From Escherichia coli (lineage in GTDB: Bacteria > Pseudomonadota > Gammaproteobacteria > Enterobacterales > Enterobacteriaceae), in the NCBI RefSeq assembly GCF_003018255.1, contig NZ_CP027441.1: 64,000 bases of DNA; one strand, written 5' to 3'. Made by a program: the position numbers. Shown here piece after piece: positions 38,101-41,100 of this stretch; within the stretch, counting starts at the first letter, position 1; each line of letters opens with the position of its first letter.

Positions 38101-41100
38101 ATATACCTACTCCAGCTTATGTTATGTCTGTTCTGCTGACCACAGCTTATATAAGGAAGTGCGTATGCCGTCACCTCAGGGGAGACAGTGTATGCAGGAT
38201 CTCCGCAGCATCCCGCCCGTCACCTGTGAAAGGCGCTGCCAGCGTGGCAGCCATATCCAGTGCAAACACTCTGGTATAAACCTCCATCGAACGTAGATCC
38301 CTGTGACTAAGCAGTGCCAGGATGACTTTCCGGGGCTGGCGGTGATAGAGCATGTGCATGATATAGCTGTGCCGGAAGGTGTGTGGTGTGACCGGTATCG
38401 AAAAGTGTCCCCCCTGCTTCGGCCCGTCTGACAGCCAACTTCAGCCAGTTGCGCATGGTTTCGTCGGTCACAGCTCATAATGGTTCACGACGACGGGGCC
38501 GGGTGGTGCTCATCCAGCTTTCCATCTGCCTGACATAGCCTATATCTGTCAGCGGAACCCAGCGCACTTCATCTTTGTGGCGGGCGTCCGCGTCGCGCAC
38601 GCACTTTTTCGGACAGGATCCGCACAAACGGTCTTACTCCATCCAGGCTTCGCCAATACGCATTCCGGTATTCCAGAGGGGGGCGAACAGCATATGGTGA
38701 CGCTGATCCGGCATATAGAAAAGAAGGGCACTCACTTCCGAGGCCAGCAAGTAGGCCGGTGTGGCCCCCCGTGGAAGTGGCCATTCTTCTCAGGGAGAGC
38801 GCTGTTGCAAAATCCCCCCCCCCGGCGCAATGGGTAACAGGGAGACGCGTTCTGGTGAATTCTGCAGGGGAATGACATTGTTCATGAGTTATTTTTCACG
38901 TAGCACACGCACTGTTGGATGGGGCTTCCCTGATCATGGTGGGAAGGCTCAGAACGCCATATTCAGTTTCCCGTAGTGGAACATCACGCCCAGCTTAAAG
39001 TGCTCCCGATTGCGGTATCCCCTGGCTTTTATCCTCAGTAGCCTGATCTTACTGTTAAGCGCCTCCGCATTTCCGTTTGAGACACGGTGCCGCATGGCAT
39101 TCAGGATCCCGTAAAGCCTTTTTCCTATCGTTTTTGCGGCGTTTTTCATCATAGGAACGTCACAGTTGGCCGCTAGAGCCAACCATCTCTCCCAGTCATT
39201 ACGTCTTTCCTCACTCCATGGCCTGTTCCAGATATCCTTTGCCAGCTCTTTCATGTCAGCGCCCAGCACTGGCTTGTCAGCTTCATCTGCGCACGCAGCC
39301 ATATCAGCTTTTCCTGCCTAGATTCGGTCATCCATTTATCGCTGTACTGCCACAGGAAGCGGGTCCCCTTTGCCTGACGCCGACTTTCAACAGGGAGGTG
39401 CGAATGTTCATTCTGACGGTTTTTATCAACCACTTCGCCAAGTTGCTTTGCTACATGGAAGCGGTCGAAGGCGATTTTCTCAACCGCACAGGGTAAGTGG
39501 ATACGCGCTGCTCTTATATAGCCTGCATTCATGTCCATTGAGAGCGTTTTGATAGCCAGCAACTGCCCGTCAGTAAGCGTGCGAAGATAGCCGGCGAGGC
39601 TCTCTGTGCCACGATCGTCCGTTAAGGGCAGCGCACGACCATCGCGATCGGAGCTCATCGTTATATAACGATGTCCTTTTTTAAAGGCGACCTCATCCAC
39701 ATTCATATGACGGGCGGATAATGGCTTTTTTATCCGGACAAAACCTCGCTTAACTGCCCGGGTCATAATGCCGTCAACCGCATTCCAACTGAGCTTAAGT
39801 TGTTTCCTGACAGCATCAACAGTACTGATTTTCAGCCATGAGAGAACGAACGATTCGAACAGCAGCGTATACCGGCTTCCGGGGCCAGCCCTGGGAACTG
39901 GCAACGTCTGGCGGCCATGCTCCGGCACATAATGCGGGGCACATCGGCTTCGACAATAGTGGTGAACTGGCAGGTATCAAGATGACGCCATTTACGATGA
40001 CGGTGACATCGTGAACAGAACAGGATTTACCACAGGTCGGACAGGCTAACCGGGCATTTTCAGCGATCCCAACTGTGACGGTAACAGAACCGGCGTTTTC
40101 ATCGAGAGAAAGAGATTTAACCTGCCTTGGAGCGGTCAGGTTGAGAATATGAACGTAGAGGGACTTTTCGTCCATGGCGGTGACCTCTGGCAATTAAAAC
40201 ATCATCATGCCTTCAGCCACCACAACAAGGGAAGACCCTTATGGATACAGCTATTCTGACCTGAACGTCCGGATCCTTCCACGACAATAAATCGCAGCGC
40301 GCGGATCCTTTTGTTTGATTATCACGCATTATTGCGTGTAAAGCCAAATACGTAAAGGCGTATTTGGCCGCAGGGATCCCGTCTTAAGCCAGTCGTGGCG
40401 CAGGCTGATGGCTGGTTTGCCGTTTTTGGGAGAATAGGGAGAATTGGGAGAATTGGGAGAATTGGGAGAATTGGGAGAATTGGGAGAATTGGGGTAATAC
40501 CAGGACGCTAATGATCTATCAATGGATGGATGTAAGTGACAATTGAAAACTGAAAAATGCGCTATGTAGATTCTGACAGATTTATGCACCTGAAATACGT
40601 TCAAAATCCACATAGCGTAACTCTGATTTCCCTTACCAGAAAAAAGAGGGGGAATAACCAGTATCTATCCCCCTAAACAATAGCAGAATAATAAATTATA
40701 AAAATAAGAACTCAGGATTTATATACATGATTACATGTAATATTACTGATAAATATTTTGAGATAAAACCTTTTTGCTGATTATTTTAAATATCTTGATT
40801 TCATCATCTGTAAGGTTGCTCCATATTTTTTTTAGATAGCGTCCATATATCCTTGTAATCTTCTGTAAAAACAAATCACCATCTGGAGTCAGGTAAATAT
40901 TCTTACTACGTCGATCTTCCTTACTTTCCATACGCCTAATAAAACCAAATTTTTCCAGAGAGTCACAAACTCTGGTGATATTTGTTCTGGAAACATCTAA
41001 TTTATCACTGAGTTCAGTTGGAGATAAGCAAAAATTATCAGCACTGGATAAGAGGGCCAGAACCATAAGTGTTGTATCATTTATGCCATCCACCTTCAGG

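Follow-up and report, generated by a model that had tools for sequence, protein, structure and literature searches.

Copy-number variation of a 9-bp tandem repeat in the IncFIB backbone of an Escherichia coli enterohaemolysin plasmid

What purpose, if any, is served by eight head-to-tail copies of a 9-bp unit lying between an insertion element and a regulator gene on an Escherichia coli plasmid? The window, which is the whole 64,000-nucleotide stretch of contig NZ_CP027441.1 analysed here, is a pO113-type enterohaemolysin plasmid. A slipped-strand variable locus, a protein-binding array and a remnant coding repeat had been proposed for this array from its sequence. Our analysis favoured the first of these: with a probability of about 80%, the array is a neutral variable-number tandem repeat in non-coding IncFIB backbone DNA that was produced by replication slippage. 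The sequence and the Tandem Repeats Finder results agreed with the original prediction of eight 9-bp units, six of them perfect, at 40428-40499. The array was also placed correctly between the ISL3 element, which ends at about 40238, and the MarR gene at 40743-41291, but this position was not specific to the locus, since the repeat is part of the IncFIB backbone and adjoins quite different cargo elsewhere. The features of the region were as follows:

36909..37886, plus strand: RepFIB replication initiator gene, the marker of the backbone module to which the array belongs
38171..38916, minus strand: remnant of an IncFIB-associated, Xer-like tyrosine recombinase (integrase) gene, with an indel (deletion) of about 20 bp by comparison with intact copies
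38917..40238, minus strand: ISL3-family element whose transposase (Pfam DDE_Tnp_ISL3 and HTH_Tnp_ISL3) is frameshifted
40239..40427, no strand: left flank, conserved IncFIB backbone ending in GTTTTT directly before the array
40428..40499, no strand: 9-bp tandem array of eight units (GGGAGAATA, six copies of GGGAGAATT, and GGGGTAATA), found by reading the sequence and by Tandem Repeats Finder
40428..40436, no strand: first unit, GGGAGAATA, in which a T-to-A change marks the pO113-type lineage
40437..40490, no strand: six perfect GGGAGAATT units, the part that expands and contracts
40491..40499, no strand: terminal degenerate unit, GGGGTAATA, corresponding to the second unit of the ancestral imperfect pair
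40500..40640, no strand: right flank, CCAGGA and then a spacer, hypervariable among IncFIB plasmids
40649..40673, minus strand: terminator-like hairpin and T-run downstream of the MarR gene
40743..41291, minus strand: MarR-family regulator gene downstream of ehxD (Pfam MarR, 5e-13)

Tandem Repeats Finder reported positions 40426-40493 with a period of 9, 7.6 copies, 96% matches and a score of 129; its consensus, TTGGGAGAA, described the identical array in another phase. A pattern of two units with at most two mismatches occurred six times in the window, each time at the array, and not once in 100 dinucleotide-preserving shuffles. The array sat upstream of the Xer-like integrase gene, at a distance of about 220 bp, in a conserved part of the IncFIB backbone. 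In the window, the full-length ORF of the integrase was gone and the gene was cut off by the ISL3 element, whose insertion 31 bp before the start codon of the integrase separated the array and its flank from the gene. The left flank corresponded to the integrase upstream region of uninterrupted plasmids. The EHEC version of the right flank was common to about 385 E. coli genomes, and the MarR-family gene beyond it had MprA as its top NCBIfam match, below the cutoff of that model. Across plasmids, the neighbours of expanded arrays were unrelated to each other and included MarR/ehx, bfp, ShET2 and IS elements.

A copy number that is invariant across isolates had been named as part of what would refute the original prediction, and this fell away because copy number varied when repeat number was compared across related plasmids. 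Alleles with the same flanks had 1, 2, 3, 4, 5, 8 or 13 units, and all of the differences were multiples of 9 bp:

AP042674: 1 unit
Generic IncFIB plasmids: 2 units
pO157 of WS4202 / ATCC 35150, and CP027370: 3 units
pO113: 4 units
E. albertii pEA18_3: 5 units
The window: 8 units
E. albertii pEA13_1: 8 units
E. albertii NBRC 107761: 13 units

About 99% of the backbone-carrying sequences, comprising roughly 2,900 E. coli genomes and 3,700 plasmids, had only the ancestral imperfect pair, GGGAGAATT-GGGGTAATG. At least two GGGAGAATT-type units were found in 29 records among 2,882 backbone-carrying E. coli genomes, none with more than three, and in 44 of the 3,691 plasmids from PLSDB. Four units were present in eight and three units in ten of the 385 genomes with the EHEC right flank, and the rest had fewer. 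In the pO113-type lineage, three units were found on 30 contigs, four on 498 and five on 269, and no contig beyond the window carried eight. The low-copy alleles were uniform, with four units in 8/8 pO113-type plasmids from three continents and three units in 9/9 O157:H7 strains. The alleles arose independently on several occasions and were distributed over pO157, pO113-type, pig-derived and E. albertii plasmids. The other member of the pair also expanded, as GGGGTAATT was present in two or three copies in the 79.6-kb plasmids of E. albertii, and a protein variant with NYP x3 carried an EHEC-type N-terminus. In scans of metagenomes and genomes for three perfect units, all 15 matches except E. 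albertii NBRC 107761 were coincidental arrays between unrelated flanks.

Comparisons of closely related plasmids revealed how the array changed against its surroundings. L025 and L026 had no point mismatch over the 4.65 kb compared and differed by 9 bp (one unit) in the array; L024 and L027 had three point mismatches over 5.2 kb and differed by 27 bp (three units); and the window and pO113 had ten point mismatches over 12.4 kb and differed by 36 bp (four units). In these alignments, the array changed faster than the sequence around it. With 1 to 13 units in related plasmids, changes in whole units and near-identical plasmids differing at this place, the proposal of a slipped-strand variable locus was supported. 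L008, L025 and pO157 had an intact integrase gene, and the window, pO113 and L024 had a disrupted or replaced one; a link between expansion and integrase loss was rejected because plasmids with an intact integrase held 3, 5 and 13 units.

The ancestral sequence, GTTTTT-GGGAGAATT-GGGGTAATG-CCAGGA, is already an imperfect 9-bp direct duplication, and the pair was kept in IncFIB plasmids of Klebsiella and Enterobacter with a flank identity of about 85%. In most plasmids, GGGGTAATG occupied the position of GGGGTAATA. In the pO113-type lineage, the outer units GGGAGAATA and GGGGTAATA were fixed and the inner perfect units varied, two being present in pO113 and four more in the window; GGGAGAATA was retained in the 3-, 4-, 5- and 8-unit alleles of this lineage. 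A small minority of plasmid lineages has thus gained or lost whole units of one member of the ancestral pair. The pattern of alleles points to slipped-strand mispairing at replication as the probable mechanism, in which each extra perfect unit would ease further slippage. Beyond the right end of the array, exactly after CCAGGA, six plasmid types appeared to part, as would be seen at a recombination junction. This candidate was rejected when an alignment with Klebsiella revealed a purine-rich, hypervariable spacer, after which homology returned, 40-60 bp further on (GCGCTAYG..ATTCTGAC).

The G-rich strand of the array was also examined for G-quadruplex motifs, defined as at least four runs of at least three G with loops of 1-7 nt. 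Five overlapping motif starts were located in 40428-40464, and the rest of the 64 kb contained two plus-strand sites and no minus-strand site. The motif was matched from four units upward. Folding of the array as RNA with ViennaRNA gave -5.4 kcal/mol with the quadruplex option and -1.5 kcal/mol otherwise. The predicted G-quadruplexes could contribute to the instability of the array.

The eight units of the window might instead be an artefact of assembly or sequencing, the true allele being the 4- or 5-unit form of the lineage. The eight-unit allele of the window was indeed absent from 5,426 complete E. coli genomes, from PLSDB and, by exact look-up, from the protein collection, whereas alleles of 3, 4 and 5 units were common. 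However, an array of 72 bp is shorter than ordinary reads and is normally assembled correctly, and six perfect units between two lineage marker units are the outcome expected of real slippage. Long arrays were also found independently in pEA13_1 (8 units) and E. albertii NBRC 107761 (13 units). An artefact was judged to be extremely unlikely.

The slippage reading holds that the DNA is non-coding, and the only ORF through the array was the following:

40329..40613, minus strand: ORF of 94 aa that runs through the array as PNS repeats, judged to be a non-gene

The original prediction had stated that this ORF translates the array as PNS repeats and that it is probably not a gene; the first statement was correct, and the second was upheld by variable N-termini, changes of frame, an in-frame stop and the absence of a family match. 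If it were a real gene, its product would be a small protein whose Pro-Asn-Ser repeat varies, with the array setting the protein length. This would fit with a frame that was open in nearly all relatives, Klebsiella included, with a unit length that is a multiple of three, and with the annotation of the ORF by PGAP in thousands of records. Between E. coli and Klebsiella, the frame had a dN/dS of 0.4-0.7; the other two frames had higher values, a difference that was not significant with about 20 substitutions. Searches of Pfam and NCBIfam, however, gave no match, and the names assigned by PGAP in relatives ('hypothetical protein', 'serine/threonine protein kinase', 'transcriptional regulator') contradicted each other. 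N-termini and start codons were wholly different between plasmid types, with lengths of 51-105 aa. Homologous DNA to the right of the array was read in differing frames in different plasmids, the C-termini were frameshifted in P0023 and P0025, and the shared part contained an in-frame stop in E. albertii NBRC 107761 (L008). The 18 variable sites in E. coli were distributed 5/6/7 over codon positions 1/2/3, almost all of the changes altered the amino acid, and a second minus-strand frame through the array was equally open. In the window, the first unit was read as PYS, the start codon was located about 26 nt past the end of the hairpin at 40649..40673, and only a weak GAG was present as a ribosome-binding site. 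A small protein of this kind is very unlikely, and the frame named 'serine/threonine protein kinase' or 'transcriptional regulator' in thousands of IncFIB records is almost certainly mis-annotated and no gene. A plus-strand mini-ORF that would use the ATG in GGGGTAATG and GGGAG as ribosome-binding site was rejected as well, because its length and sequence were unconserved when the flanks were compared by eye (4-18 or more codons); its ATG was lost in the window, where it was replaced by ATA. The proposal of a remnant coding repeat was not borne out either. The ancestral state was a single imperfect pair in about 99% of carriers, Klebsiella IncFIB plasmids included, and the array is therefore a recent expansion and not a relic.

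Searches for other functions were made at and around the array. In a consensus scan with a threshold of 9 of 12 positions, no sigma-70-like site overlapped 40428-40499, and the nearest promoter-like sites were at 40356-40318 on the minus strand and 40543-40572 on the plus strand. A search of 39500-41500 against Rfam with E-values up to 1 gave no RNA family, and no binding-array signature or other functional signal was found at the array. A function of a kind not yet described could, however, leave neither a promoter-like nor an Rfam match. The hairpin at 40400-40420 with its T-run was considered as a plus-strand terminator, with the left flank as a small RNA, and was rejected owing to its weak stem and the lack of a preceding plus-strand promoter; its arms looked unconserved in Klebsiella by eye. 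Overall, the array probably has no function of its own, as it has no protein product and no recognisable promoter, and the integrase beside it in the window is already inactivated.

A contrary reading is that the array is a cis-regulatory contingency element, in which the number of units would set the spacing or strength of a promoter for the integrase (minus strand) or for the right-hand cargo, and slippage would tune or switch it. The array is part of the region upstream of the integrase, some 70 bp past two weak promoter-like sites on the minus strand (40356-40318). Its distance to bfpA, downstream of it in E. albertii and in five E. coli EPEC plasmids, is about 190 bp, and two near-identical E. 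albertii plasmids differed by three units at this place. Three or more units also created a weak plus-strand match, TTGGGA-16 nt-GAGAAT, with 8/12 positions as counted by eye, and the ancestral block was fairly well conserved. Nevertheless, no promoter-like site spanned or included the array at the threshold of the scan, and switching of a reading frame is impossible because the unit is 9 bp. The two-unit state in 99% of carriers would be unusual for a contingency locus, and the low-copy alleles were stable over whole lineages. Moreover, the integrase gene of the window was damaged and cut off by ISL3, and the neighbouring cargo varied from plasmid to plasmid. Such a regulatory role appeared quite unlikely.

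The units might also be binding sites, for example accessory or arm-type sites of the Xer-like recombinase, with the ancestral pair as the working site and the arrays as multiplied sites. A tyrosine recombinase gene is nearby, the ancestral pair was conserved from E. coli to Klebsiella, and direct repeats beside recombinase genes serve as accessory sites in integrons and at phage attachment sites. At the array itself, however, no inverted core site could be recognised. The palindrome at 40343-40368 was tried as a core site and rejected, because it was perfect solely in the lineage of the window and was not conserved in Klebsiella, where its right arm was replaced. Expansions were alike with the integrase intact, disrupted or replaced, and the apparently sharp right-hand junction was the hypervariable spacer and not a recombination joint. 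Binding sites of this type were regarded as highly improbable. The original proposal of a protein-binding array likewise found no support, since the multi-copy array was missing from almost all backbone plasmids and no cognate gene travelled along with it. MarR proteins bind inverted repeats, and the array as an operator of MarR was rejected because it was also present in plasmids without the MarR gene.

Conservation of the ancestral sequence bears on one further possibility. In an alignment of 11 sequences, 25 of the 30 columns of the ancestral block were invariant, compared with 50-65% in the preceding 60 nt, and conservation of the block was equal to or higher than that of the better-conserved parts of the integrase upstream region. 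Because of this conservation, the ancestral pair could be a functional site that is disturbed by the expansions. It is conceivable, though decidedly unlikely, that the block GTTTTT-GGGAGAATT-GGGGTAATG-CCAGGA is a working cis element of IncFIB plasmids (for instance an accessory site of a recombinase, or an upstream promoter element), with slippage as a tuning knob for the integrase or for a right-hand virulence operon; the G-quadruplexes of long alleles could then add a second layer. The operons affected would be bfpA in E. albertii and some EPEC plasmids, and the ehx-MarR module in EHEC.

The neutral slippage reading places the array beside the tandem-repeat loci used for typing. In E. coli O157, such loci change by whole units, single- and multi-unit steps are about equally common, and rates rise with allele length (PMC3777172). 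The MLVA loci of O157 and other EHEC (Vhec, TR, O157-n) share with the array the differences in whole-unit copy number between close strains and an origin by replication slippage. In contrast to them, the array was near-monomorphic, with two units in 99% of carriers, showed polymorphism in just a few lineages (pO113-type, some pO157 and E. albertii plasmids), and is part of the IncFIB backbone, not of one serotype. Some standard MLVA loci are plasmid-borne. The units of nine E. coli MLVA loci are 6, 7 or 18 bp and none is 9 bp, with typical alleles of 2-15 or more copies (Table 1 of PMC3768571), so the array, compared by unit length, is not one of these nine. No description of the locus was found in literature searches on MLVA, pO157, pO113 and IncFIB, nor among the 20 top-ranked of 1,470 papers matching the unit sequence.

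The array has little weight for biology and a modest one for practice, and it would be of more interest only if the number of units affected a neighbouring gene. It can serve as a cheap, fast-changing length marker that splits near-identical sublineages of pO113-type, pO157 and E. albertii virulence plasmids. It also illustrates the birth of a repeat, in which a conserved imperfect 9-bp duplication is quiet in 99% of plasmids and occasionally runs to 8-13 copies.

Contingency loci of Haemophilus, Neisseria and Campylobacter are likewise slippage-prone tandem repeats near the starts of genes. They are located either within frames, where the unit length is indivisible by three, or between the -35 and -10 elements, and their variation within populations is frequent, whereas the array has a 9-bp unit, no spanning promoter and no real ORF, and most of its carriers are invariant. 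RepFIB iterons and partition centromere arrays resemble it as short head-to-tail repeats in intergenic plasmid DNA. Functional plasmid arrays flank the gene of their own binding protein and, as a rule, are multi-copy in all members of a plasmid family; the GGGAGAATT array, in contrast, was multi-copy in about 1% of backbone plasmids and had no associated gene. The array as RepFIB iterons was rejected, as the 21-bp repeats at 36653-36704 were unrelated to its unit in sequence. These RepFIB iterons adjoin repA in the window, and 8-bp CTTGTTAT arrays at 15296-15353 and 16407-16489 flank a ParA-like operon.

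Direct reading of the sequence showed that the array at 40428-40499 consisted of GGGAGAATA, six copies of GGGAGAATT and GGGGTAATA, so that the original prediction of eight units, six of them perfect, was right in all details. Tandem Repeats Finder detected this array as well, shifted in phase, at 40426-40493 (7.6 copies of period 9, 96% matches, score 129). A two-unit pattern with at most two mismatches occurred six times, always inside the array, and never in 100 shuffles. The region matched pO113 (NC_007365) and its relatives at 99.8% and was arranged as follows.

36909-37886, + strand: RepFIB replication gene
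ending at 38916, - strand: remnant of a Xer-like tyrosine recombinase (integrase) gene
38917-40238: ISL3-family element, frameshifted transposase split into three ORFs (Pfam DDE_Tnp_ISL3)
40239-40427: conserved backbone, 189 bp, left of the array
40428-40499: 9-bp array
directly right of the array: spacer, ~140 bp
40673-40649, - strand: terminator-like hairpin, beyond the spacer
40743-41291, - strand: MarR-family gene, downstream of ehxD
right of the MarR-family gene: ehxD and ehxB

Comparison with uninterrupted plasmids placed the ISL3 insertion 31 bp ahead of the start codon of the integrase gene; the sequence on the left side of the array is therefore what normally lies upstream of that gene. 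The array is part of the IncFIB backbone and belongs to neither the ISL3 element nor the ehx-MarR module. In addition to the insertion, the integrase gene of the window carried an indel of ~20 bp, so that it was doubly inactivated (gene remnant and element together, 38171-40238). The best model for the MarR-family gene was MprA (EmrR; 3.7e-36, 124 bits, under the 157-bit cutoff), and its pO157 counterpart was broken into two ORFs.

The repeat number was not invariant across related plasmids but varied from 1 to 13 units, as expected of the slipped-strand variable locus that had been proposed.

Unit counts of arrays read directly
AP042674: 1 unit (degenerate unit only)
Generic IncFIB: 2 units (ancestral pair)
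pO157 of WS4202 and ATCC 35150, and CP027370: 3 units
pO113: 4 units
Window: 8 units (GGGAGAATA, six GGGAGAATT, GGGGTAATA)
E. albertii pEA18_3 (L027): 5 units
E. albertii pEA13_1 (L024): 8 units
E. albertii NBRC 107761 (L008): 13 units (12 perfect, then GGGGTAATG)
E. albertii 79.6-kb plasmids: 4 or 5 units (other pair member, GGGGTAATT, two or three times)

A protein variant with NYP three times revealed that the second pair member had likewise expanded in a plasmid with an EHEC-type N-terminus in its ORF. In near-identical plasmids, the array differed by whole units and the remaining sequence hardly at all; the locus is a genuine repeat of variable number.

Near-identical pairs of plasmid loci
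L025 and L026: 4.65 kb compared, 0 point mismatches, array differs by 9 bp
L024 and L027: 5.2 kb compared, 3 point mismatches, array differs by 27 bp
Window and pO113: 12.4 kb compared, 10 point mismatches, array differs by 36 bp

In L024 (2690-2943) and L027 (2690-2916), whose arrays differ by three units, as well as in five E. coli EPEC plasmids (H401-H405), the backbone block with the array was located ~190 bp upstream of bfpA.

Array expansions were rare. At least two GGGAGAATT-type units were found in 29 of ~2,900 E. coli records, none with more than three, and in 44 of 3,691 PLSDB plasmids, among which E. albertii was over-represented; among the 385 genomes that carried the EHEC right flank, 8 had four units, 10 had three and the remainder fewer. 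Low-copy alleles were stable inside lineages, with four units in all eight complete pO113-type plasmids (USA, Australia, Japan) and three units common to nine O157:H7 strains. When the reading-frame product was looked up by exact match among ~15 billion proteins, the pO113-type lineage proved polymorphic, with alleles of 3, 4 and 5 units on 30, 498 and 269 contigs, respectively; the 2-, 6-, 7-, 9-, 10- and 11-unit forms and the 8-unit form of the window were absent from this collection. The window holds the longest allele so far in its lineage.

The left flank was found in 2,882 of 5,426 complete E. coli genomes and in 3,691 PLSDB plasmids from Escherichia, Klebsiella, Salmonella, Enterobacter and other genera. 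Nearly all carriers had GTTTTT-GGGAGAATT-GGGGTAATG-CCAGGA, that is, one unit and one degenerate unit, and this pair was almost unchanged in Klebsiella and Enterobacter IncFIB plasmids although their flanks were only ~85% identical. An old imperfect duplication has thus expanded recently into the eight-unit array; this excludes the remnant coding repeat proposed earlier. The ancestral 30-nt block was fairly well conserved, being invariant in 25 of 30 columns (11 sequences), compared with 50-65% in the 60 nt before it, but was not conserved above other islands in the region; a function of the pair itself is conceivable, although nothing points that way.

The best-supported account of the allele series is slippage during replication that started from the ancestral imperfect duplication, in which every perfect unit gained would ease the next step. 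The series itself and its whole-unit steps were observed directly, and slippage is inferred as their cause. All alleles of the pO113-type lineage kept GGGAGAATA and GGGGTAATA as outer marker units and varied only in the number of perfect units between them. In published passage experiments, E. coli O157 repeats changed by whole units, single- and multi-unit steps were similarly frequent, and rates increased with allele length (PMC3777172). The locus behaves like MLVA-type repeats. The nine standard O157 MLVA loci have units of 6, 7 or 18 bp, and by unit length the 9-bp locus is not among them (PMC3768571). No earlier description was found in the searchable literature, and the value of the locus for typing would be modest.

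A protein-binding array had also been proposed. However, the multi-copy array was missing in 99% of plasmids with the IncFIB module, which is not the behavior expected of a binding array, and this reading was not supported. Expanded arrays occurred with the integrase intact (pO157, L008, L025), disrupted (window, pO113) or replaced by IS2 (L024, L027), and adjoined unrelated cargo. Neither a sigma-70-like site overlapping the array nor an Rfam match at it was found, and the unit was unrelated to RepFIB iterons. Arrays of at least four units matched a G-quadruplex motif (G3N6 x4) on the G-rich strand, one of only three such sites in 64 kb; this is a property of the sequence rather than evidence of a role. 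Of the defining features of contingency loci, a frame-shifting unit inside a real gene and a position within a promoter were lacking, and of those of binding arrays, a multi-copy array kept across the module and a linked gene that co-varies with it. In contrast, two 8-bp arrays in the same window (15296-15353, TTGTTATC x7.2; 16407-16489, CTTGTTAT x10.4, 100% matches) flanked a ParA-like operon, with an ATPase gene at 15478-16104 (Pfam MipZ, CbiA, ParA) and a 100-aa ORF at 16101-16403, and look like candidate partition centromere sites. The 9-bp array is a real tandem repeat of the IncFIB backbone that rarely expands and, we infer, is probably neutral.

The minus-strand frame across the array (40329-40613) had been considered probably not a gene, and our results agreed. 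Its homologues, 51 to 105 aa long, had unrelated N-termini and start codons, and shared only the translation of conserved DNA left of the array. Right of the array, where homology resumes, the reading frame differed between plasmids; frameshifted versions occurred, and E. albertii NBRC 107761 had an in-frame stop inside the shared part. Among E. coli copies, the shared 99 nt varied at 18 sites, which were spread 5/6/7 by codon position; nearly all changes altered the amino acid, and a second minus-strand frame was equally open. The product had no Pfam or NCBIfam match and lacked the defining features of repeat proteins, and in the window the start codon was ~26 nt past the terminator T-run, with a weak GAG as the only ribosome-binding site. 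The sole point that might favor coding was a dN/dS of 0.4-0.7 between E. coli and Klebsiella, below that of the other frames, but with ~20 substitutions this was not significant. The frame was judged not to be a gene. PGAP calls it 'hypothetical protein', 'serine/threonine protein kinase' or 'transcriptional regulator', and the latter two names stand without family support on this ORF, its counterparts in loci L001-L007 and very many IncFIB records; correcting this widespread mis-annotation is another modest use of the analysis.

An apparently sharp junction following CCAGGA was no recombination joint but the start of a purine-rich, hypervariable stretch of spacer. The spacer (40500-40560; counterparts in L004, L005, L008 and L028-L030) was unalignable between IncFIB plasmid types, and homology seemed to restart farther right at GCGCTAYG..ATTCTGAC. 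A compensatory change may have occurred in the short hairpin at 40323-40338 (CACGCA-TTAT-TGCGTG): its second stem pair read A-T in the window and C-G in Klebsiella IncFIB, and was mismatched (A/G) in most copies from E. coli. The 10-6-10 palindrome at 40343-40368 (GCCAAATACG-TAAAGG-CGTATTTGGC) was perfect only in the pO113-type lineage, imperfect in other E. coli, and had its right arm replaced in Klebsiella. The EHEC-type right flank contained an inverted repeat (40560-40576 and 40601-40617) whose 17-nt arms were 88% complementary across a gap of 24 nt. Elsewhere in the window, identical pairs of small tandem repeats lay ~16.08 kb apart (17571-17589 and 33655-33673; 18055-18077 and 34137-34159), which points to a segment present twice, as an IS copy or as part of a larger repeat.
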